A stretch of DNA of 44,940 bases, taken from Oligoflexales bacterium (GTDB lineage: Bacteria > Bdellovibrionota_B > Oligoflexia > Oligoflexales > CAIYRB01). Position numbers and translations under genes: made by a program. Location of the stretch: the NCBI GenBank assembly GCA_041736175.1, contig JBGSUI010000111.1, forward strand, positions 1 to 44,940, given 5' to 3'. Below, piece after piece: positions 27,583-37,886 of this stretch; the stretch's first letter is position 1, and the number at the start of each line of letters is the position of its first letter. The notes under the pieces are model-generated. The model saw nothing but the letters and a program-made list of their open reading frames with translations. It was not told the origin of the DNA and did not search any database.

Positions 27583-27648
27583 TTGATACTACGATATTTC
27601 GAAGTTATACTTCGAAATATCATCTAATTTCGAGGTTTCACTTCGATG
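27583..27648 (+). promoter_or_regulatory. sigma70 promoter overlapped by tandem palindromic operators
   Basis: TTGATA(27583)-N17-TATACT(27606). Perfect 13-bp inverted repeat GATATTTCGAAGT-TAT-ACTTCGAAATATC (27593-27621). Second degenerate copy at 27627-27648 reaching the ATG. Confidence 0.75.
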
Positions 27649-28794
27649 AAGTATAACAGGTTGATTAATTTAAGAAATATCCTTGACCAAAAATCCCATT
27701 TTCTTTTTGGCCCACGGCAAGTGGGTAAGTCCACAGCCATTGAACAACAGTTACCAGATGCTTATGTTGTCGATCTCCTAGATTCAGATCAATTCAACAC
27801 CTACTTACGTCGACCCAAAGCGCTTGGTGAGGAATTGGAACATAGTCAGGCTCGGATTGTCGTGATCGATGAAATTCAAAAGCTGCCTGAACTGCTTGAC
27901 GAAGTGCAGCGCCTCTTAAAATCTGGGCGTTGGACCTTTCTGTTAACTGGAAGTAGTGCGCGCAAACTGAAACGCAAAGGTAGCAATCTCCTTGGCGGTA
28001 GGGCGTGGACGAAGCATATGTTTCCTCTGGTCTATGCGGAGATTAGTGGGTTCGATCTGATGCAGTACTTACGAAACGGTGGACTTCCGTCAATTTATCT
28101 GAGCAAGTTTCCCGATCAAGAACTCAAAGCTTATGGTCAAACCTACCTGAAACACGAGATTCAGGACGAAGCATTGGTGCGCAACCTTAGGGCGTTTAGT
28201 GCTTTTCTCGATTTCATGGGAAAAACCAATGGATGCGAGCTTAACTACACTTCCATAGCTCAAGACTGCGGTGTCAGTGATCACACGATTCGCTCTTACA
28301 TAGAGATTCTCGAAGACACTCTGATTGGGTTTAAACTGCCTGCCTTCACCCAGTCCAAAAAAAGGACAGCACAAAAACGAGCTAAGTTTTATTTTTTTGA
28401 TACCGGAGTGGCGCGAATCTTAGCGCGGCACGAGGACCTCAATCAAGACCACCCAGCTTTTGGTACCTATTTTGAGCAGTTTATCATAAACGAAGTGCGT
28501 GCTTACCTGTCCTATCACACGAAGGATATCATGTGTGCCTATTGGCGAAGTCAGTCAGGTTTTGAGGTGGACCTAGTCGTTGGTACCACTTTGGCCATCG
28601 AAGTCAAGAGTACTGATCTTGTCAAGGAAAAGCACCTAAAAGGTTTACTCGCACTGGCTGACGAGCAGTTGTTTGAGCGATACATCATCGTAAGCCAAGA
28701 CAGACAAAGGCGTTCGTTGGGGGCGATTGAGGTATGGCCATGGGAGCTTTTTCTGCAAAGTCTTTGGCGAGGTGAATTTACTTTTCGACCCTGA
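27646..28794 (+). CDS. AAA_14 ATPase with DUF4143 (PD-(D/E)XK-like) C-terminus
   Basis: Walker A GPRQVGKS, Walker B VIDEIQ, LTGSS, KFYFFDTG, YWRSQSGFEVDLV, AIEVKS. Confidence 0.92.
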   Translation: MKYNRLINLRNILDQKSHFLFGPRQVGKSTAIEQQLPDAYVVDLLDSDQFNTYLRRPKALGEELEHSQARIVVIDEIQKLPELLDEVQRLLKSGRWTFLLTGSSARKLKRKGSNLLGGRAWTKHMFPLVYAEISGFDLMQYLRNGGLPSIYLSKFPDQELKAYGQTYLKHEIQDEALVRNLRAFSAFLDFMGKTNGCELNYTSIAQDCGVSDHTIRSYIEILEDTLIGFKLPAFTQSKKRTAQKRAKFYFFDTGVARILARHEDLNQDHPAFGTYFEQFIINEVRAYLSYHTKDIMCAYWRSQSGFEVDLVVGTTLAIEVKSTDLVKEKHLKGLLALADEQLFERYIIVSQDRQRRSLGAIEVWPWELFLQSLWRGEFTFRP

Positions 28795-28844: not shown

Positions 28845-31800
28845 TTACTGGATGTTTCCCAAGGAGGCTATCTTACCAAATGCCATCGCCCCCTCGATTT
28901 GGAGTCCTCCCAGGGCCGTGAGCCCCTGGAGCACCCCGAGGTCGCTGCGCAAGACTTGCTCGTCAGCTTTTTGGACCTCGGAGCTGGTGGTCAAACCAGC
29001 CTGCCAGGACCCTTGCACCGCTTTTTGGGCCTTCAGAGCAGCCTCCCTAAGGGATAAGGCAGACCTGAGGACATCGAGGGCCTGGGACCACCGGACCTGG
29101 TAGGAGGCGCGGATATCCTTAAAGTTAGAGTCGAGTTCCTGCCGCTGGGCGGCGAGTTCGAGCCTTTGCCGGGTGGCGTCTGCCACTTGGCGGTGACGGG
29201 TTCCTCCGTCGAGGAGAGTCCATTGGAGTTCGACAGCGGCGATATGTTGGGGGTCTTGGTTGGGGTTGCCTTCAAACCATTGGCTTGACCGACTGAGACT
29301 GAGGCCGACGGTTGGATAAAAGGCTGCATCCTGGGTCTTAGCCGTGGCCTCAAGCACTTTTTCAGCTTGCTGTAAGGATTCGACGCTTTTGATCCCTAAA
29401 CTATCTTGGACGCCCATCCCAGCCAGTGGCGGAAATCGCGGATGTCCTGGGGGAACAGGACCCGTCAGCTTAAACTTCCGGGCCAAGGCCATATAAAGCT
29501 GCTTTTCCCGAGCCACCGCCTGATGCATTTCGAGGCGGCTTTGTTGGTAGGAAGCCTCTGCCTGGGTCAGGTCGATCGTCGCGAGAGTTCCCGCCGTTAC
29601 GCGATCCTTGATAAGATTCATCCGCCGGAGAGCGACTTGGGAGGCTCGGGTTAAAATCTCGGCGAGGGACCGTGCCGCTGAGTATTCCAAGAGGACTTGG
29701 GAATGCTGCAAAAAACGAGCTTCCTTTAGGGCTCCCGTCTGGATCTCTTTTTGGGCTAGGACCGCTTTGGCTAGGTCTAAGCCGACGATGGCCTGGGTGT
29801 TGTAGAGGGGAATTTTGGCGCCTATAGTCACCTGATCTTGTTGTTTAGGGATGATCACCGTGTTGGTTTGGATCGGGCCTCCTAAGGTGTCAGGAAGGGG
29901 AAGGGTGATCGCCTGGGTAAACCCTGGTTGAGCCCATTGGCGGCCCGCTGTCACCTGGACACCACCCGCAAAGGCAAGTCGTGAGCTGAGGGTCGCCGCA
30001 TCGGAGGTGACTTGGAGGGCTTCTAGCTTGAGGACTTCGCTGCCAGTAGGATCCACATAGTTAAGGACTTGTTTGGTGAAGGAGGCTGGCATCTCACCTA
30101 AAAGTTGAAAGGCCTCGTTGATTTCAGGCACGGGGGCTTGAGCCCGGCTTTCACCCCCTCGACCGCCTACCAACACAAAACAAATAAGTGTTGAGGCTAT
30201 TTTTTTGGTGTTATAATCTAAGTCAGGCGCCTCCTTGCCTTTCCTGCGGCGTTGCTGCCAGGAGCGGATCTTTCCGATAAACCCAAAGATAGCGGGGACC
30301 ACCACCAGGGTCAGAAAGGTCGAAGAGAGGACGCCGCCGATGATGGCGATCGCCATGGGGCTGCGAAACTCCGAGCCACCACCGCGCATCAAGGCTGTTG
30401 GGATCATCCCGGCGACCATGGCGGCGGAGGTCATAAAAATAGGACGGCAGCGCTCTCGGACACTTGCTGAGACCGCCTCGCTTAGGGAAACCCGTTTTTC
30501 CCATTGGCCGATGGCGTCCACGAGGAGGATGCCGTTTTTTGCCGCAAGACCCATCACAAAAATCATGCCAATGATAGATCCCATGGCGAGGCCATGGCCC
30601 GAAAGGGCTAGGGCATAAAAGGCACCTACGGTCGCCAGGGGAAGGGATAATATGATCACAAAGGGTCGCAGCAGGTTTTCAAACTGGGCCGCTAGCACCA
30701 CAAAGATGCAGAACACGGCCCCTAGGAGTGCGATCATAAAATTTTCGATCATCTCCTCAAACATCTCGGCATCTCCGGCGATGGCTCCCGAGTTTGGTGG
30801 GGAGATCCCGGCGATGACTTCCTTCTTAATCTGGTCGAGGATCTGATCTAAAGGGCGCGTTCGGTCTAGGGTTGCCCAAAGAATCATGGCACGGCTTCGC
30901 TGCTCCCGATCGATCGCCGTCGCCCGTTGGGTGGTTTTTTGTTGGACCAGAGGAAACAGCGGTACGAGGCCTTTGGGTCCAGGAATCAACAAATAAGAGT
31001 TTAGCGATTCGAGATTGCGATCCTCCTCGCGCATCCGCACCACAAAAGGGATATTGTCATCCCCGACATTTCCCGCATCTAGACCGGTCAGGGCAAGACG
31101 CCCCGAAAGCTCAACGGCCTCGGACGAGGTTCCTCGGTAGGCCAGCTCGGTCCGGTCGATCACCACATCGAGGGCGGGACCAAAGGAGCCGGTGTCGATT
31201 CTTGCATTGGCTATGCCCGGAATAGCGAGCAGACGCTCACGGGCTTTTTGGGCCTCCAGGTCAAGCTGGACCAGATCGCTGCCATAGATGGTGAGCATCA
31301 CGGGAGCCTGCATCCCGGCGCCCTCAAAAGGCGGAGGGTCGAGGATCAGCCAGTCGGCTTCGAGACCTTTGAGCCGTCCCAGAGCTTCTTGGATCAGATC
31401 CAGGAGCCCCCGTTGGCGGAGGGTTTTATGGACAAACATCACCCTGATATCGGCGGTGTTGGCAGCGTTTTTTCCGCCCTCCCTGGCAAAAACATCGGTC
31501 ATCCCTTCGAGACCTTGCAGTCTTTTGGCGGCATCGCGGACTGTTCTTTGAAACTCCGCCCGGGTGGTCCCTGGTTTTGCCTTAAGGGAGAGCACAAACT
31601 GGCCGCGGTCTTCGAAGTTTAAAAAATCCATGCCCTTTTGGCCGATAAGATACACTCCAGACAATAAGATTAGGATCGTTGCGACGGAGACCCAGAAAGG
31701 CCTGGTGAAAGCCCACCGCCCCACTTTTTCAAAGAAGATTTCGAATTTTTCGAGACCACCGCGCCATCTCTGCCAAAAGGCACCTTGCAGCATCGAAGGT

Positions 31801-33263
31801 GTAGCCGCAAATTTAGAGGAGAGCATGGGATCCAAGGTAAAGGCCACCCACATGGAAATCAGCGTTGCTATCACAATCGTAAGCCCAAACTCCCTAAAAA
31901 ATTGCCCCACCATTCCACCCATCAGCGCGACGGGGAGGAACACGGCGACGATGGCCAAGGTCGTCGCTAAGACAGCGGCGGCGACTCGCTCCGTGCCACG
32001 GATGGCGGCGTCAGCTCCGTAGTGCCCCTTTTCCATTTCGGTGTAAATAGCCTCGCGGACTACGACCGCATCATCGATTAAAAGTCCTATGGCTAAGGCG
32101 AGGGCTAAAAGAGTGATCATATTGATGCTAAATCCCATCACATGAAAAAAGATAAAGGTACCCACCACCGCCACCGGCAAAGCCGTCGCTGAGATAAGGG
32201 CGCTTTTAATATCAGTGAGTGCTAGAAAAATAATGATCACTGCAAAAAGACCACCAGCGATTAAGGCGATCCAGACTTCGTGTTCGTTTTCCTTGATCAT
32301 CTCTGATTGGTCGACGATGGGAAACAGACGGATCCCATCAGGCAAAGGATGGTTGGCGAGCCATTTTTTGACGGCAGCCACAGTCGTGACCGTGTTGCCA
32401 TCGGCTCTTTTGGTCACGACGAGGCCAAGGCCCTTGACGCCGTTGATTTCGACGGTTTCAGCGTCTTGGTCGGTGGTCTTGACGACGTCGCCTACGTGGG
32501 AGAGGACGACCCTGCGACCGTCGGGGAGGGCTACCTGGGTCTGCATCCAAAGGTTGGGGTCATCCGCTGCCTGGACCGAGGCCACGTTGGCTGCGACTTT
32601 TTCTCCTTCCACTTGGCCCCAGGGCACCAGCGCCAACCTTTGGCGGATCGCCTGATAGAGGTCGAGGGCACCCATCTGCCTGGCACTGAGTTGTTGGGCA
32701 TTGAGTTGGAATTCTAACCGGTCCTCCCCAATCCCGACAATCGTCGCATCGTTGACCCCTTCGAGCCGTTGCAGGGATTGCAGCACCGTGTCTTTGAGCT
32801 GTTTTCTGGCTTCGACAGCCCCCATTTTAGTCTCGATACCGTAGATCAAAACCGGCGAAGCTCCCACGTCGACACGGCGGACGACGGGGTCTCGGATGTC
32901 TCGGGGCAGCTCGTCTCGGACACCAGCGATCCTTTCTTTGACCGAATCCAGAGCTTCCCGGTCACTGACGGTGAGCCTAAACTCAAAAATCATAAAAGCA
33001 AATCCAGTCCGAGACTGGGCCGTGATCTTTTTTAGGCCTTTAATCCCGGAGGCAGCGGCCTCTAAGGGTTTTACAATCTTTGATTCGATCTGTTCAGGGG
33101 CTGCGCCGGGGTAGGGGACTAGCACGGTGATAAAGGGAAAGGTGACTTGGGGCCAAAGAGCGACGGGGAGGCGCAGCATAAAAAAGAGCCCTACAAAAAA
33201 CAACGCCGCACTTATGATTCCCGCCGTGACGGGTCTCTGTACGGAAAAACGGGCGAGATTCAT
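28845..33263 (-). CDS. AcrB-type (HAE1) RND transporter fused to a C-terminal TolC-like outer membrane factor
   Basis: First ~1000 aa is RND with proton-relay motifs GLLIDDAVVVRE, GLAAKNGILLVD and RPIFMT. Last ~430 aa has OMF motifs (AGTLATIDLTQAE, FYPTVGL, WTLLDGG, AGLTTSSEVQKA). Confidence 0.9.
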   Translation of the reverse strand: MNLARFSVQRPVTAGIISAALFFVGLFFMLRLPVALWPQVTFPFITVLVPYPGAAPEQIESKIVKPLEAAASGIKGLKKITAQSRTGFAFMIFEFRLTVSDREALDSVKERIAGVRDELPRDIRDPVVRRVDVGASPVLIYGIETKMGAVEARKQLKDTVLQSLQRLEGVNDATIVGIGEDRLEFQLNAQQLSARQMGALDLYQAIRQRLALVPWGQVEGEKVAANVASVQAADDPNLWMQTQVALPDGRRVVLSHVGDVVKTTDQDAETVEINGVKGLGLVVTKRADGNTVTTVAAVKKWLANHPLPDGIRLFPIVDQSEMIKENEHEVWIALIAGGLFAVIIIFLALTDIKSALISATALPVAVVGTFIFFHVMGFSINMITLLALALAIGLLIDDAVVVREAIYTEMEKGHYGADAAIRGTERVAAAVLATTLAIVAVFLPVALMGGMVGQFFREFGLTIVIATLISMWVAFTLDPMLSSKFAATPSMLQGAFWQRWRGGLEKFEIFFEKVGRWAFTRPFWVSVATILILLSGVYLIGQKGMDFLNFEDRGQFVLSLKAKPGTTRAEFQRTVRDAAKRLQGLEGMTDVFAREGGKNAANTADIRVMFVHKTLRQRGLLDLIQEALGRLKGLEADWLILDPPPFEGAGMQAPVMLTIYGSDLVQLDLEAQKARERLLAIPGIANARIDTGSFGPALDVVIDRTELAYRGTSSEAVELSGRLALTGLDAGNVGDDNIPFVVRMREEDRNLESLNSYLLIPGPKGLVPLFPLVQQKTTQRATAIDREQRSRAMILWATLDRTRPLDQILDQIKKEVIAGISPPNSGAIAGDAEMFEEMIENFMIALLGAVFCIFVVLAAQFENLLRPFVIILSLPLATVGAFYALALSGHGLAMGSIIGMIFVMGLAAKNGILLVDAIGQWEKRVSLSEAVSASVRERCRPIFMTSAAMVAGMIPTALMRGGGSEFRSPMAIAIIGGVLSSTFLTLVVVPAIFGFIGKIRSWQQRRRKGKEAPDLDYNTKKIASTLICFVLVGGRGGESRAQAPVPEINEAFQLLGEMPASFTKQVLNYVDPTGSEVLKLEALQVTSDAATLSSRLAFAGGVQVTAGRQWAQPGFTQAITLPLPDTLGGPIQTNTVIIPKQQDQVTIGAKIPLYNTQAIVGLDLAKAVLAQKEIQTGALKEARFLQHSQVLLEYSAARSLAEILTRASQVALRRMNLIKDRVTAGTLATIDLTQAEASYQQSRLEMHQAVAREKQLYMALARKFKLTGPVPPGHPRFPPLAGMGVQDSLGIKSVESLQQAEKVLEATAKTQDAAFYPTVGLSLSRSSQWFEGNPNQDPQHIAAVELQWTLLDGGTRHRQVADATRQRLELAAQRQELDSNFKDIRASYQVRWSQALDVLRSALSLREAALKAQKAVQGSWQAGLTTSSEVQKADEQVLRSDLGVLQGLTALGGLQIEGAMAFGKIASLGNIQ

Positions 33264-33268
33264 AGGAG

Positions 33269-33859
33269 CTACCTTATTTTCTCAGATCCAGAACAATTTC
33301 CCTTCTGGATCTGGTTTACGTCCGCCGTCGTTTCCACGTAGCCTAAAAACTGCCCAAACTGAACAAAAAGACCTTTAACCCGTGGCAACCCACGGACCAC
33401 GCCAGCTATTTCCGCTTTAATTTTGGTATCGGCAATCTGGATTTTGAGTCGTTCTACCACGGCCATGGCCTGGGCAACTCCTGCCCGCGCCTGGGCAAGC
33501 CTAAGATTCGACTCTACGACTTGTTGTTTTGATACAGAGTCACCACCCTTTAGGCTTGCCACCCGGTCAAAGGCATCTTTAGCTAGATTTTCCTGAGATC
33601 TTGCCATGAGAAGAGCTGCCTCGGCCTCCTTGAGCCCCACGACGAGGATCCGGTCGTCGAGGGTTAAAATGACGTCGCCAGGGGAGACGGGACTGTTTTC
33701 TGATTTTTCTACCGACGCTAGGATGCCGGACGTGCGGCTGGTGAGTTCTTGGCGTAAAAAGCAGCTTTCAGCCCGCGAAGGATTGGTCCAGAGGATGAGT
33801 ATAAGAGCTCCTCCTAAAATCGGGACTAAAGTCTTTATGGTATAATCGATTCGTTCCAT
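33269..33859 (-). CDS. Short RND periplasmic adaptor (lipoyl plus alpha-hairpin only)
   Basis: AAGGA RBS before ATG 33859. Signal peptide ending SRA. Lipoyl halves (SRTSGIL...PVSPGDVILTLD and IKAEIAGVV...G) around a coiled coil. 196 aa. Confidence 0.8.
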   Translation of the reverse strand: MERIDYTIKTLVPILGGALILILWTNPSRAESCFLRQELTSRTSGILASVEKSENSPVSPGDVILTLDDRILVVGLKEAEAALLMARSQENLAKDAFDRVASLKGGDSVSKQQVVESNLRLAQARAGVAQAMAVVERLKIQIADTKIKAEIAGVVRGLPRVKGLFVQFGQFLGYVETTADVNQIQKGNCSGSEKIR

Positions 33860-33897
33860 ATTGGGTCCTTTTGAATTGAAACAGTCCTTCAGAAAAT

Positions 33898-33924
33898 TTA
33901 TCGGCTTAATGAAGTTAGGCTTTA
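33898..33924 (-). promoter_or_regulatory. sigma28 (FliA) promoter for the adaptor-RND operon
   Basis: Minus strand TAAA-N15-GCCGATAA, the exact consensus, 39 nt upstream of ATG 33859. Confidence 0.8.
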
Positions 33925-33929
33925 GGAGA

Positions 33930-33938
33930 GGGGGGGGG
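33930..33938 (+). repeat. G9 homopolymer between RBS and start codon
   Basis: AGGAGA-GGGGGGGGG-ATG at 33924-33941. Confidence 0.85.
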
Positions 33939-35261
33939 ATGAATCTCATACAGGTTGCTATCCGTAATGTAGGTCGCAACAAGAGACGCAGTTTCATCAC
34001 AATGTTAACCGTATTCCTGGGGGTCGTCGTCTCAACCCTGACCCGGGGGCTTCTCGATGGACTGCAAGGCGAAATCAAGAGCAATCTTACGCGAAAGATG
34101 TACGGAGACCTCCAAGTTCATAGGAAAGGCTATCAAGATACCTTGGAAAGCCAACCCTATAAACTCCTGATACCTCAAAAAATCCAAAATCTAACTTGGG
34201 ATCAAGCCCCAAGGCTCAAGGTGATGGCTTTAGTCAACCACCAAAAAAGCCAGTCAACGACACCGGTCATGATCACAGGAATCGACTCGACCCTGGAAAA
34301 TATCGTTTGCCCTCGATTTATGTCCGCCGTGCAAACAGGAAAGATGCTAGATTCGACTCTTGAACGTGGCCCCGTCTCTTCCACTCCCACCTCCCAGGAA
34401 GCAGAGGATCTAGGAGAAGCCTCCGGCCTTGGGAGCCAACAAGATGATCAATCCTTAAAGGGTGTAGGTCCACGGGCCGAAGGATTTCAGCAGATCCTGC
34501 TGACTCCGAGTCTTGTGCGGGGAATGGGTGCAGAAGTAGGCGATGAAATGATCGTGCTTATCGCAGATAAAGACAATATGCAGCAGGCCATCATCGCCCG
34601 CTTGGTCGGTGTGATCGACTTAGGGATCCCGGGGGCCGCGGCGCGCATGGCCTGGATGGACCTCGCTCAGTTGCAAAAGACTTTAAACGTCCAGGGCCAA
34701 GCTTCCGAAATCGCTATTCGCCTCCCTGTAAGCACAGACCTTAGGGATGGACAAAACCATCTTTTGAGCTACCTAGGTGCGGATCAAATGGTGGAGACTT
34801 GGGAGGAGTTGGGAGGTTTTCTCCGGGACGCAATGGCCTTGCAAAATGTGGTGTTTACCGCAGTGGTTGGCATTATGTTTGCCATTGTGATGGCTGCCAT
34901 CGTCAACACATCTCTGATGACGGTCATGGAGCGAACCCGCGAAATCGGCAGCCTTATGGCTCTAGGATATCGTCGAAAACATATTCTCACTCTTTTTCTG
35001 GTGGAATCTGCAGTCATAGGGGGCCTGGGCGGGGTGCTAGGGCTTATGACTGGAGTCTTCGGAATTGGGATCCTTAATTTTACGGGAATCAGCCTTAAAC
35101 TCCCAGGTCAAGTTATTGCAACGACCCTCTATCCCACCGTGTCTCTAACGTTCTTATGTTTGCTTTTTTCACTGGCAGTGGGTTCTGCCCTATTGGCAGG
35201 CTTTATACCTGCCCACCGCGCCAGTCACCTAAAACCTGTAGATGCTTTGACATCGACTTAA
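33939..35261 (+). CDS. FtsX/LolE-like ABC transporter permease
   Basis: AIRNVGRNKRRSFIT N-terminus, one TM, a large periplasmic domain, ERTREIGSLMALG and LKPVDAL. Confidence 0.92.
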   Translation: MNLIQVAIRNVGRNKRRSFITMLTVFLGVVVSTLTRGLLDGLQGEIKSNLTRKMYGDLQVHRKGYQDTLESQPYKLLIPQKIQNLTWDQAPRLKVMALVNHQKSQSTTPVMITGIDSTLENIVCPRFMSAVQTGKMLDSTLERGPVSSTPTSQEAEDLGEASGLGSQQDDQSLKGVGPRAEGFQQILLTPSLVRGMGAEVGDEMIVLIADKDNMQQAIIARLVGVIDLGIPGAAARMAWMDLAQLQKTLNVQGQASEIAIRLPVSTDLRDGQNHLLSYLGADQMVETWEELGGFLRDAMALQNVVFTAVVGIMFAIVMAAIVNTSLMTVMERTREIGSLMALGYRRKHILTLFLVESAVIGGLGGVLGLMTGVFGIGILNFTGISLKLPGQVIATTLYPTVSLTFLCLLFSLAVGSALLAGFIPAHRASHLKPVDALTST

Positions 35262-35264
35262 CTG

Positions 35265-36014
35265 ATGGAGTCTTTTTCGATGAATCTATCTAGAAGAATC
35301 ATAAACCTGTTTGCAGCTGTCACCCTTAACCTTAACTCAATCCCTATTCTCTTGGCCCAGGATGCTGTGGAAATCATCAAAAAAGTCGAAGAGATGTTGG
35401 GGCCAAAAAATTTAAAGGCCAGCTACAGATTTGTGAACCATCGTCTTGATGGCACCACGTCAGAGTATCAAGTCAACTTTTCCATGCGCGATGCTGAGCG
35501 AAGTCATGTGCAGTTTATTTTTCCAGAAAGGGAAAAAGGCCGCGAAGTCCTTCGACTTGATAATGATATCTGGTCCTTTGTCCCTGGAGTCAGTCGGGTG
35601 GTACGCATCGCTGATCGCGATAGTTTTGCGGGGGGGGATTTCTCAAACGCCGATGTGCTCAGGATTGATTGGCTCAAAAAGTATGTGCCTAAGGTGCTCA
35701 AGGATCTCCCTAATCAGTGGATAATCCAAATGGACGCAAAACCAGCGACCTCAGCACCCTATGCGAAGATGAGGCTTTGGGTCGATAAAAAAACCGGGCA
35801 GCCGGTGCAGCAACATTACTATGATTCCAATGGAACCTTGCTCAAGCGTTGTCTTTATGGCGAAACCAAAAAATTTGCGGTGATCGAGCGGCCAGCGCGC
35901 TTGGTGATGGAAAATGTGATTACCAAACAAAAAAGCGAGCTTACAGTCTTGGATTTTCAAATGATTGCGGGATTTCCAGATAGCCGATTTATGGTCGAAA
36001 ATCTTGGGAAGTAA
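35265..36014 (+). CDS. LolA-like outer membrane lipoprotein-sorting protein
   Basis: Signal peptide. F.FPEREKGREVL, IWSFVP, SFAGGDFSNADV, YAKMRLWVDK and YYDSNGTLLK are typical of the LolA-like/DUF1329 family. Confidence 0.88.
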   Translation: MESFSMNLSRRIINLFAAVTLNLNSIPILLAQDAVEIIKKVEEMLGPKNLKASYRFVNHRLDGTTSEYQVNFSMRDAERSHVQFIFPEREKGREVLRLDNDIWSFVPGVSRVVRIADRDSFAGGDFSNADVLRIDWLKKYVPKVLKDLPNQWIIQMDAKPATSAPYAKMRLWVDKKTGQPVQQHYYDSNGTLLKRCLYGETKKFAVIERPARLVMENVITKQKSELTVLDFQMIAGFPDSRFMVENLGK

Positions 36015-36019
36015 AATTT

Positions 36020-37201
36020 ATGTATCATGACCTTATTTCATGCCGGTTTGTCACCGTCTTTTTAACTCTATTGATCGCTCTTGAGGCCAAGGGTCTGGGC
36101 CAGACGACATCCCCTAAAACACCCTTGCCAGAAGACACAGATCTTGGGGAGGCCACTGGACTAGCACCTGTCAATGACGCCAAAAAAGCCACCATAGCTA
36201 CCCCTGCACCAGAGGAGAGATCCTGGAGCCCGTTAAGGGGGCTTTCGGGACGAGGGTCGCTTATATTTCAGGGGAGATACATCAGAAAACCAAAGGAGAC
36301 CGAGGCCCACCTCAGCGGGCCATTGATCGAAATGGGTTTAGCCAGTGACTATAAACCGACGGAAAAAATAGCTGTGTTTGGGGAAGGGCGACTTTTCTAT
36401 GACCATGATTTACTGGGACATAGGAACCAAGGTTTTCTCGATCAGGGAGGCATACGCCTAAGGCCGGTCGATCAGATGTTGTTTGTGATTGGTAAGGAAC
36501 GAAATCGAAGATCCCCTGGTCTTTTATTGTCCCCCAGTGACTTTTTACATTCATCCCAAAGCCCCCCTGGATTAAGAGAGGACCGCAGTGGGGTGTGGCA
36601 GGTACGGACAAGCCTTCAACTGGAAAACCATTCGATCGATGCCATTCACTTGCCGATCGCTGATGTGGGTTTAAATGGTATGCCAGCAAAGGGTGGAGGG
36701 GGTGGAAATGCCCTGCGTTATTTTGGTCGATTCCCCACAGGTATCGATCTTGGCCTGGAGATGGCCCGTCTTAAAGGTGATCTCCTAGGAGGGGCCTTTA
36801 CCCAAGTCATGATCGCCCAAGTTTATAAGGTCTACCTGGAAGTCGGTGTTGACCGAGAAAAAGCGGCAAACAGCTACCTCCTTGGAACGAGCTACGAAGG
36901 ACTGGCAGATACCCTGGTAAGGTTTGAATACTACGAGTCCGAAGCCGGTTGGTCACAGAAATCACCTTTTTTTCAGGATCATAAATATGCCATCGTGAGT
37001 TTGAGTCTTGCCGAAATCAAAAATGAGTTTAACCTTACGGACACCCTGGTCAAAAGTCTCGAAACCGAGGATTTGGTGCATGTGCTCCGTGGCGAATGGA
37101 TCTTTTCATCTTGGCAAACTGCGGGACTTAGCACCACCCATATCGTCAGGGACCAAGGCTACCAATGGCAAGCCCTCGGGGACTGGAAACTCAGCTTTTA
37201 A
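36020..37201 (+). CDS. Putative outer-membrane beta-barrel
   Basis: Signal peptide, disordered N-terminal extension, amphipathic strands and C-terminal WKLSF. Confidence 0.75.
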   Translation: MYHDLISCRFVTVFLTLLIALEAKGLGQTTSPKTPLPEDTDLGEATGLAPVNDAKKATIATPAPEERSWSPLRGLSGRGSLIFQGRYIRKPKETEAHLSGPLIEMGLASDYKPTEKIAVFGEGRLFYDHDLLGHRNQGFLDQGGIRLRPVDQMLFVIGKERNRRSPGLLLSPSDFLHSSQSPPGLREDRSGVWQVRTSLQLENHSIDAIHLPIADVGLNGMPAKGGGGGNALRYFGRFPTGIDLGLEMARLKGDLLGGAFTQVMIAQVYKVYLEVGVDREKAANSYLLGTSYEGLADTLVRFEYYESEAGWSQKSPFFQDHKYAIVSLSLAEIKNEFNLTDTLVKSLETEDLVHVLRGEWIFSSWQTAGLSTTHIVRDQGYQWQALGDWKLSF

Positions 37202-37211
37202 GGAGATCGCG

Positions 37212-37886
37212 ATGATCAGGCTCGAAAAAATCGGCAAATCATACACGACGGGCAAACTAAAAGTCCCGGTGTTAAACCAGTTGGATTTTAAAGTGACCGA
37301 GGGAGATTTTACCATTATACGCGGACCCTCTGGGTCTGGGAAAAGCACCTTACTCAATCTCCTTGGACTCCTTGATGAACCGACTGAAGGCAACGTTTTT
37401 TTGGACGGGAGATTAGTGAGTTTCCTTGATTTTGACCAACTTGCCGAAGAGCGGTCGCGATCCATCTCCTTTATCTTTCAATCGTTTCATCTAAACCCGG
37501 TGCTGACTGCCGAAGAAAACGTTATGATCCCGCTCCTGATACGCAAAGACATTCCCTTGGACGAACGCGTGCATCGAGTCACCCACTGGGTTGATCAAGT
37601 AGGACTCCGTGACCATCGCCACCAACGCCCCGATGAGCTGTCTGGTGGTCAGAGGCAACGGGTTGCAATCGCCCGCGCCTTAGTCAGCGGTCCTCGCCTT
37701 GTGATTGCCGATGAACCGACTGCCAATCTAGATTCGAAAACATCCCATACGATTTTGCAGCTGATGAGTCAGCTCAACAGGGACAAGGGCATAGCGTTTG
37801 TCTTTGCGACCCATGACCCGACTTTAGATGCCTATGCCCGTACCGAACTCCTTATGAAAGATGGTCACCTAGAACAGGTACGCTGA
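37212..37886 (+). CDS. ABC transporter ATP-binding protein (LolD/MacB-like)
   Basis: Motifs GPSGSGKST, LSGGQRQRVAIARAL, ADEPTANLD, ATHD. AAGGAG RBS before ATG 37212. Confidence 0.95.
   Translation: MIRLEKIGKSYTTGKLKVPVLNQLDFKVTEGDFTIIRGPSGSGKSTLLNLLGLLDEPTEGNVFLDGRLVSFLDFDQLAEERSRSISFIFQSFHLNPVLTAEENVMIPLLIRKDIPLDERVHRVTHWVDQVGLRDHRHQRPDELSGGQRQRVAIARALVSGPRLVIADEPTANLDSKTSHTILQLMSQLNRDKGIAFVFATHDPTLDAYARTELLMKDGHLEQVR

Follow-up and report, generated by a model that had tools for sequence, protein, structure and literature searches.

Why an ATP-binding cassette (ABC) permease of the inner membrane and a beta-barrel of the outer membrane should carry the same short peptide is the question raised by a four-gene operon of an Oligoflexales bacterium (assembly GCA_041736175.1, genome G000 in our set). 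The operon lies on the plus strand of contig JBGSUI010000111.1, positions 1–44,940; this whole stretch of 44,940 nucleotides is referred to here as the window. The genes encode, in order, a permease, a LolA_like protein, a porin-like barrel, and an ATPase. A sequence-only reading of the window had pointed to an eight-residue peptide common to the permease and the barrel and had proposed that both proteins use it to dock the LolA-like protein encoded between them. Our analysis supports this proposal: all 18 orthologous operons compared have the motif in permease and barrel alike, and the barrel copy is predicted to sit on the LolA-like carrier. The peptide is very probably a functional element that couples permease and barrel, and we favor, with somewhat less assurance, the view that donor and acceptor both use it to dock the LolA-like carrier of their own system.

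The first motif copy, DLGEASGL, lies in a loop of the permease (34407..34430, plus strand; GAT CTA GGA GAA GCC TCC GGC CTT, preceded by E), and the second, DLGEATGL, lies in an N-terminal arm of the barrel a few residues past the signal peptide (36140..36163, plus strand; GAT CTT GGG GAG GCC ACT GGA CTA). Both 8-mers were found where the sequence-only reading had placed them, in the same frames, together with the synonymous codon differences that it had described. Because 5 of the 7 identical residues differ in codon and only 16 of the 24 bases are identical, the match is not a DNA repeat. Within one genome, these codon differences are not enough on their own to rule chance out. Among 4,400 long open reading frames (ORFs) called in the genome, all 10,842 pairs lying less than 3 kb apart were compared, and 101 of the pairs had a 7-of-8 peptide in common, roughly half of them as isolated single matches. 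The match within this genome alone is not beyond chance, and a 45-kb scan could meet one now and then.

How common such isolated matches are among neighboring genes is the point in favor of a coincidence, by chance or by composition, of two low-complexity acidic stretches. Against it, a six-frame search of ORFs of at least 100 amino acids in the 6.08-Mb assembly (12.2 million residues) found both the 8-mer and the looser pattern [DEN][LI][GESDTNQ]EA.GL at these two sites only. The comparative data bear more directly on this explanation. Barrel orthologues were found in relatives, and the upstream DNA was then taken to recover the permeases; identity to the relatives is 30–42% for the barrels and 50–61% for the permeases. 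Conservation across homologous operons, which the sequence-only reading had named as a check, was seen in every operon with both regions on the contig. The 18 operons represent 16 distinct motif pairs, and the core L/I/V-x-E/A-A-x-x-L is present in both proteins of each. In the permease alignment (14 orthologues), A161 and L164 never vary, L158 and E160 hardly do, and the rest of the ~50-residue insertion is unalignable. In the barrel alignment (31 sequences), A45 and L48 are invariant, L42 and E44 are conserved in at least 90%, and the arm around the motif is ridden with gaps. All 24 locus-derived barrel N termini (23 distinct contigs) carry the motif, with the first L replaced by I in two of them. 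Both proteins thus show the pattern of a short linear motif, that is, few conserved residues amid unconserved disordered flanks. Because orthologous operons conserve the core within otherwise hypervariable sequence, the shared motif is beyond chance. With the core kept in both proteins in 18 of 18 operons while the flanks diverge, and with a second system that repeats the design with another peptide (described below), coincidence is effectively refuted by the comparative data.

The motif extends through much of the barrel family. An exhaustive library search among 1.84 billion entries returned 173 representatives of this family at E ≤ 0.001, 62 of them at E ≤ 1e-30. The strict motif pattern occurs within the first 130 residues in 35 of the best 75 library representatives; 13 of these 75 lack the N terminus, and most of the remaining full-length representatives have, as judged by eye, a degenerate acidic/hydrophobic version straight after the signal peptide. 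Three family members have two tandem motif copies in the arm, an arrangement recorded for L019:1498-2673 and for proteins P0009, P0034, and P0057. At locus L028, A replaces the otherwise constant E in the permease as well as in the barrel, a single event.

Structure models agreed with the settings that had been assigned to the two copies, a permease insertion loop and a disordered N-terminal arm of the barrel: in both segments, the AlphaFold2 (AF2) predicted local distance difference test (pLDDT) score is below 50. The permease copy lies in a hypervariable insertion loop of the periplasmic domain that has no secondary structure (residues 144–197; 34368..34529, plus strand). The barrel copy lies in the N-terminal arm of the mature protein (residues 24–71; 36089..36232, plus strand), where the alignment is gap-rich and variable except at the motif. 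In the AF2 monomers, neither copy docks onto its own protein, and both are low-confidence coil. The leash in the permease loop measures ~15–30 residues on either side of the motif, and ~27 residues lie between the motif and the first strand of the barrel.

We compared this arrangement with other operons that encode LolA_like proteins. A distant operon type of the same phylum (3 loci in 2 genera) encodes a pair of permeases along with a LolA_like protein, a barrel, and an ATPase. There, the insertion loop is missing from the permeases and the N-terminal motif from the barrels. Permease and barrel thus either both have the motif or both lack it. In the genome from which the window comes, six PF17131 genes score over the cut-off, namely that of the operon carrier and those on contigs C90, C78, C259, C225, and C190 (loci L042–L046). 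Three of the PF17131 genes adjoin FtsX-type permeases, and one adjoins a 1589-residue protein of no family. The C259 LolA_like locus has no permease, and local alignment at the C78 locus revealed no shared peptide.

The operon on contig C225, hereafter system 2, consists of genes for an ATPase, a 700-residue permease, a 489-residue permease, a LolA_like protein, and a 489-residue unnamed protein. The unnamed protein is a distant homologue of the window barrel (hhalign, 93.3%; E 2.8e-7; 269 columns, with the family signature aligned). This relationship is visible by profile comparison only, as pairwise BLASTP of the two barrels was not significant. System 2 has a peptide of its own, acidic-x-x-[ILM]-F-G, which stands at the N terminus of the mature barrel, followed by a low-complexity linker, and again in a low-complexity loop of the 700-residue permease. 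The barrel N-arm has it at 20 of 21 loci and an I-L-G variant at the remaining one, and L-F-G is present in the large permease in 16 of 18 loci, with the other two one residue off. The second permease never contained the peptide in the loci examined. In one system-2 clade, L-E-[DE] precedes the peptide in barrel and permease alike; in the other clades, the preceding residues are R-D in the barrel and A-E in the permease. System 2 is also the commoner of the two systems, with occurrences in 46 of the 131 genomes in our sample of the phylum. Two paralogous systems thus each pair a permease loop with a barrel arm by a peptide of their own, which amounts to co-variation at the level of the whole system. 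This is the strongest argument that the peptides matter and that they couple donor to acceptor. A 708-residue ORF elsewhere in the genome (G000 C88:18818-20941) also contains a system-2-like acidic-LFG peptide; it was set aside, as it is not a permease homologue.

The second system also bears on the idea of a processing, sorting, or quality-control signal, such as a protease or chaperone site, that the two envelope proteins would need separately. The position of the barrel motif, a few residues past the signal-peptide cleavage region, is what such a signal would suggest, but in the permease the motif sits away from the termini, in a loop that joins two transmembrane helices. Other proteins would also be expected to carry a general envelope signal, and the motif is unique to these two in the genome. 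Moreover, a different peptide in system 2 fits system-specific recognition better than it fits a shared housekeeping factor. We consider a signal of this kind very improbable.

We then turned to the carrier as the proposed binding partner. LolA-like residues 31–249 (16-row alignment) were co-folded with barrel arm residues 24–75 (30-row alignment), and two unrelated partners and one unrelated receptor served as controls. The interaction prediction score from aligned errors (ipSAE) was 0.78, 0.78, and 0.78 in three runs, and the best of the three controls reached 0.00. The ipSAE mark that we applied is reached by 116 of 157 solved complexes and by 2 of 215 mismatched pairs, figures that are a rough guide only when custom alignments are used. 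The runs had at least 73% of contacts in common, and the confident interface on the peptide side consisted exclusively of barrel residues 42–48, that is, L-G-E-A-T-G-L. Co-folding of the barrel peptide with the LolA-like protein, another check named in the sequence-only reading, thus places the motif itself on the carrier in the prediction.

The predicted peptide-binding surface comprises LolA-like residues 145–146, 148–151, 153, 172, 181–182, 197–200, 210, 212, and 214 (35697..35906, plus strand). Seven of these 17 interface positions (Q151, I153, W172, Q182, Y198, G199, and P210) do not vary among 16 orthologues. Positions that at least 15 of 16 motif-bearing carriers conserve and that differ in the motif-less ones also number seven of the 17, compared with 3.1 expected (hypergeometric P = 0.019, uncorrected and with three outgroup sequences only).

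A functional peptide could have a receptor other than the LolA-like protein: the periplasmic domain of the permease, the barrel, or a periplasmic factor encoded elsewhere. In one form of this explanation, the two copies compete at one site, giving direct contact between the inner and outer membranes. Conservation and the both-or-neither pattern indicate coupling of permease and barrel and do not name the receptor, and the test of specificity positions between the carriers of the two systems, given below, was not significant. However, the co-fold puts the exact motif on the LolA-like protein at 0.78 versus 0.00 for the controls, apart from permease and barrel this protein is the one conserved operon product exposed to the periplasm, and the monomer models show no intramolecular docking of either copy. 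A receptor other than the carrier is thus unlikely, if still worth serious attention.

Several results weigh against a peptide that docks this carrier at both ends. The interface is not enriched in residues that distinguish system-1 from system-2 carriers (4 of 17 versus 3.4 expected, P = 0.46). The peptide's own fold is of low confidence in the co-fold (partner pLDDT 48–49), the co-fold support covers the barrel copy of the motif alone, and a co-fold that passes is a sign of support only, the binding being a prediction from a single modeling set-up with custom alignments. Within operons, the variable positions of the motif showed no co-variation: 59 of 144 were identical between the two proteins, compared with a shuffled mean of 57.0, and 5,987 of 20,000 shuffles reached the observed value. 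For the C90 LolA_like paralogue, no peptide was found in common between the putative barrel and the permeases, so the design is not universal. Finally, if the donor and acceptor peptides occupy one and the same carrier site, something else must set the direction, for example ATP-driven loading or the avidity of the dimer. Taken together with the conservation, the second system, and the predicted interface, these points leave a docking peptide for the carrier as the reading that we prefer.

In the model that we propose, the four genes would form an accessory route for export across the envelope. The type VII ABC transporter, as a homodimer, would extract a hydrophobic cargo from the inner membrane, the soluble LolA-like protein would carry it, and the porin-like barrel would receive it in the outer membrane. 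Permease and barrel would both display a short acidic amphipathic peptide (core L-x-E-A-x-G-L) on a disordered leash, which in the permease is the insertion loop of the periplasmic domain and in the barrel is the extreme N terminus of the mature protein. The peptide would bind one site on the carrier, predicted for the barrel copy and inferred for the permease copy. The ABC dimer, with its two loops, would keep an empty carrier near and load it, after which the loaded carrier would be caught by the N-terminal peptide of the barrel and would unload to the barrel. At the permease, the leash peptide may capture the carrier and a structured hairpin, residues 203–221, may engage it for loading. The peptide sequence may serve as an address that insulates the six LolA_like routes of the cell from one another; such specificity would have a reason because a canonical LolA and six PF17131 paralogues occur in one genome. 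We infer the direction of the shuttle, the hand-off, the insulation between systems, and the cargo alike.

The leashes, long and flexible on both proteins, would also suit a static bridge like that of LptC-LptA-LptD, in which carriers stay tied to permease and barrel at all times and touch each other. The tandem motif copies on some barrels could hold two carriers, and permease and LolA-like protein lie within one open frame at one locus. However, no bridge-forming jellyroll edges are known for the LolA-like fold, and we regard a static bridge as distinctly unlikely. Returning to the mobile carrier with a docking peptide, it is conceivable, at somewhat short of an even chance, that Bdellovibrionota-type bacteria run several parallel ABC/LolA-like/barrel routes, each wired by its own address peptide on donor and acceptor. 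Two candidate codes are visible, L-x-E-A-x-G-L and acidic-x-x-[ILM]-F-G. If this is true, a single site on the carrier sets where it loads and where it unloads, and the peptide would represent a modular, re-codable principle of trans-envelope routing.

The closest precedent is the Lol pathway. E. coli LolA is recruited by the Hook of LolC (amino acids 167–179) together with a Pad (residues 163, 181, and 182), according to PMC10865981, and LolB is reported in a 2026 preprint (bioRxiv 10.64898/2026.09.01.748475) to insert a Hook of its own (T65–T71, apex L68) into the LolA cavity in a way “highly reminiscent” of LolC, which dislodges the cargo. The sequence-only reading had called a hand-off of this kind not known to be described. 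Analogous elements on donor and acceptor are already in print in the form of the LolC and LolB Hooks, and the part of the claim that stands is the use of one shared linear motif in disordered segments. By analogy, the docking peptide could be a linear-motif variant of the LolC-Hook/LolB-Hook logic. As in LolCDE-LolA-LolB, donor and acceptor would each offer a small protruding element to the carrier, and in system 2, the peptide is on one of two permeases, just as LolC but not LolE binds LolA. In contrast, the Hooks of LolC and LolB are beta-hairpins, structured and unrelated to each other in sequence, whereas here the same linear motif lies in disordered segments. The acceptor also differs, being an integral barrel and not a LolB-type lipoprotein, and the carrier belongs to PF17131 and not to PF03548.

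The motif is not itself a LolC-type Hook, as it sits in the disordered insertion, and the segment that aligns to LolE/LolF (from approximately residue 142) follows downstream. The permease-family profile aligns to LolE/LolF only past the insertion (profile 184 = LolE 142). A better candidate is the permease beta-hairpin of residues 203–221 (34545..34601, plus strand; model strands 203–209 and 215–221), which has an invariant tip of D210, M214, Q215, Q216, and A217 in the alignment columns. This hairpin may be the positional equivalent of the LolC Hook; sequence searches did not align the periplasmic loop of the permease to LolC, and the equivalence, an approximate mapping, comes from offsets only. 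The motif loop lies ~45–55 residues before the hairpin.

A second relative is the Borrelia BBJ23-29 cluster, for which a computational description proposes export of non-polar ligands by a MacB-like homodimeric type VII ABC transporter, a LolA-like protein, and an Omp85-family barrel (PMC13078400, abstract and section 8). Like the operon studied here, the cluster as set out there is accessory and combines an ABC transporter, a LolA-like protein, and an outer-membrane barrel; unlike it, the barrel is of the Omp85 family rather than porin-like, and extra tetratricopeptide repeat (TPR) proteins are present. The abstract and section 8 of that paper do not mention a shared docking peptide.

With MacAB-TolC, the operon has the permease superfamily and the ATPase type in common. 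The conserved operon differs from MacAB-TolC in having neither an adaptor nor TolC, and a carrier and a porin-like barrel replace the continuous duct. The TonB box offers a further comparison: there, too, a flexible stretch at the N terminus of an outer-membrane barrel displays a short linear motif, through which a partner that spans the periplasm is recruited. The sequence of the box is unrelated to the motif described here, and TonB systems have a plug domain, which is absent here. The partner of the TonB box is an energy transducer and not a carrier, and the TonB box is not known to have a duplicate on an inner-membrane donor.

A full-text literature search, with subscription-only literature outside its scope, found no description of a peptide shared by an ABC permease and a barrel. 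For PF17131 routes, the same search returned only annotations, mentions in proteomics, and one computational study of Borrelia (PMC13078400), and no functional study of ABC/barrel operons beyond the latter. Carrier docking in a Lol-like route is thus known; what is new is one linear motif on both ends, an uncharacterized family of transporter, carrier, and barrel, and at least two codes. Only for LolA, with its LolC and LolB Hooks, is there structural detail on how a periplasmic carrier finds its proper donor and acceptor. LolA-like proteins of the PF17131 family occur widely, and no route that they serve is known to have been characterized; the shared motif gives a directly testable handle on carrier docking. 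It also suggests a bioinformatic rule: a peptide that recurs in the loop of a permease and in the N-arm of a barrel could be used to match orphan barrels to their transporters and to predict mutually insulated paralogous routes. In addition, a small unnamed barrel family would be defined as the outer-membrane end of such a route.

The products of the four genes were assigned as follows. The first is a type VII (MacB/LolC-like) ABC permease of 440 amino acids counted from ATG (33939..35261, plus strand). It matches the Pfam families FtsX (PF02687; 2.3e-14, 53.9 bits, cut-off 25.5) and MacB_PCD (PF12704; 3.6e-07, 31.1 bits, cut-off 27). The listed ORF begins at TTG 33861, and the ATG start at 33939 agrees with the N termini of orthologues. 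The protein has the features of the type VII ABC class (MacB/FtsX/LolCDE), with four transmembrane helices of the FtsX type and a large periplasmic domain between the first and the second. Its AF2 model (overall pLDDT 65.9) places transmembrane helices at residues 15–55 and from 293 onward with a mixed alpha/beta domain in between, and its matches in the PDB are MacB, LolE, LolC, and LolF. On a contig of a groundwater metagenome-assembled genome (L023:2986-4998), the permease and the LolA-like protein form a single 671-residue open frame, which is either a natural fusion or the result of a lost stop codon.

The second product, P0002, is the periplasmic LolA_like carrier of 249 amino acids (35265..36014, plus strand; PF17131, 1.3e-36; PDB 3BUU, 1.4e-17). 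It matches only PF17131 (126.4 bits, cut-off 30) and DUF1329, and the LolA family model PF03548 gave no match. It has a signal peptide and no lipobox cysteine, and the carrier is therefore taken to be soluble. Identity among 16 orthologues is 49–65%.

The third is the porin-like outer-membrane beta-barrel of 393 amino acids (36020..37201, plus strand). The AF2 model and Foldseek upheld the earlier identification of this protein as a barrel. The model (pLDDT 80.7) has a signal-peptide helix at residues 5–23 and, beyond the disordered arm, 18 strands within residues 75–392; Foldseek matched it to OmpU, OmpF, MOMP, and OprD-family chains (probability 1.00, template modeling score 0.45–0.56, ~10% identity). 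It fits the general porin/OprD-like description of a closed antiparallel barrel of ~16–18 strands with a signal peptide, a likeness at the level of fold only. No sequence family for it was found among Pfam or NCBIfam, and a search of the ESM Atlas returned unnamed clusters only. A family signature of invariant alignment columns, GKERNRRSPG...SPSDF, occupies residues 158–178 (36491..36553, plus strand); it begins at the end of strand 153–161 and extends into a non-strand stretch reaching residue 190. The signature may mark a lumen loop or a cargo site. In one relative, a copy of the barrel gene has decayed and contains numerous stops in frame (G013:C2:195472-196576).

The fourth product is a LolD/MacB-type ABC ATPase of 224 amino acids (37212..37886, plus strand; PF00005, 3.4e-34). 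It is the fourth gene in every related locus that extends that far, with 60–67% identity in 20 related loci. Neither the permease nor the ATPase reached the cut-offs for LolCDE proper (TIGR02212, 81.2 versus 362.45 bits; TIGR02211, 230.2 versus 307.75 bits). A canonical LolA is encoded elsewhere in the genome, on contig C158, as the single PF03548 match, and the operon system occurs in 15 of the 131 genomes. Because the scores fall below the cut-offs, a separate canonical LolA is present, and the distribution is limited, we assign the operon to an accessory route and not to the housekeeping Lol pathway.

In related loci, no conserved neighbor beyond the four genes points to the cargo. Among the sequencing runs listed for the sequence, none is of RNA, and four DNA runs that contain it in full may be the source samples. 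In the window, a 1472-residue ORF on the minus strand (28845–33263) encodes an AcrB-type resistance-nodulation-division (RND) pump (PF00873, 1e-191) fused to a C-terminal TolC-like outer-membrane efflux protein (OEP) domain (PF02321). A short RND adaptor ORF of 271 amino acids, also on the minus strand (33269–34084), overlaps the start of the permease in antisense (33939–34084); its true start probably lies further downstream. The sequence-only reading had named the adaptor and the RND protein as further partners for the peptide. They are not conserved beside the operon in related loci and are probably unrelated to it, and we rejected the adaptor and the RND-OEP fusion as parts of the system, as no RND match was found in related loci. 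The “adaptor” matches there, at L018 and L039 only, are an antisense reading of the conserved 5' end of the permease gene. A gene for a DUF4143/AAA_14 ATPase lies near both motif-bearing systems of the genome, at 27646–28794 (plus strand) in the window and at L045:8077-9231, which may be coincidence.

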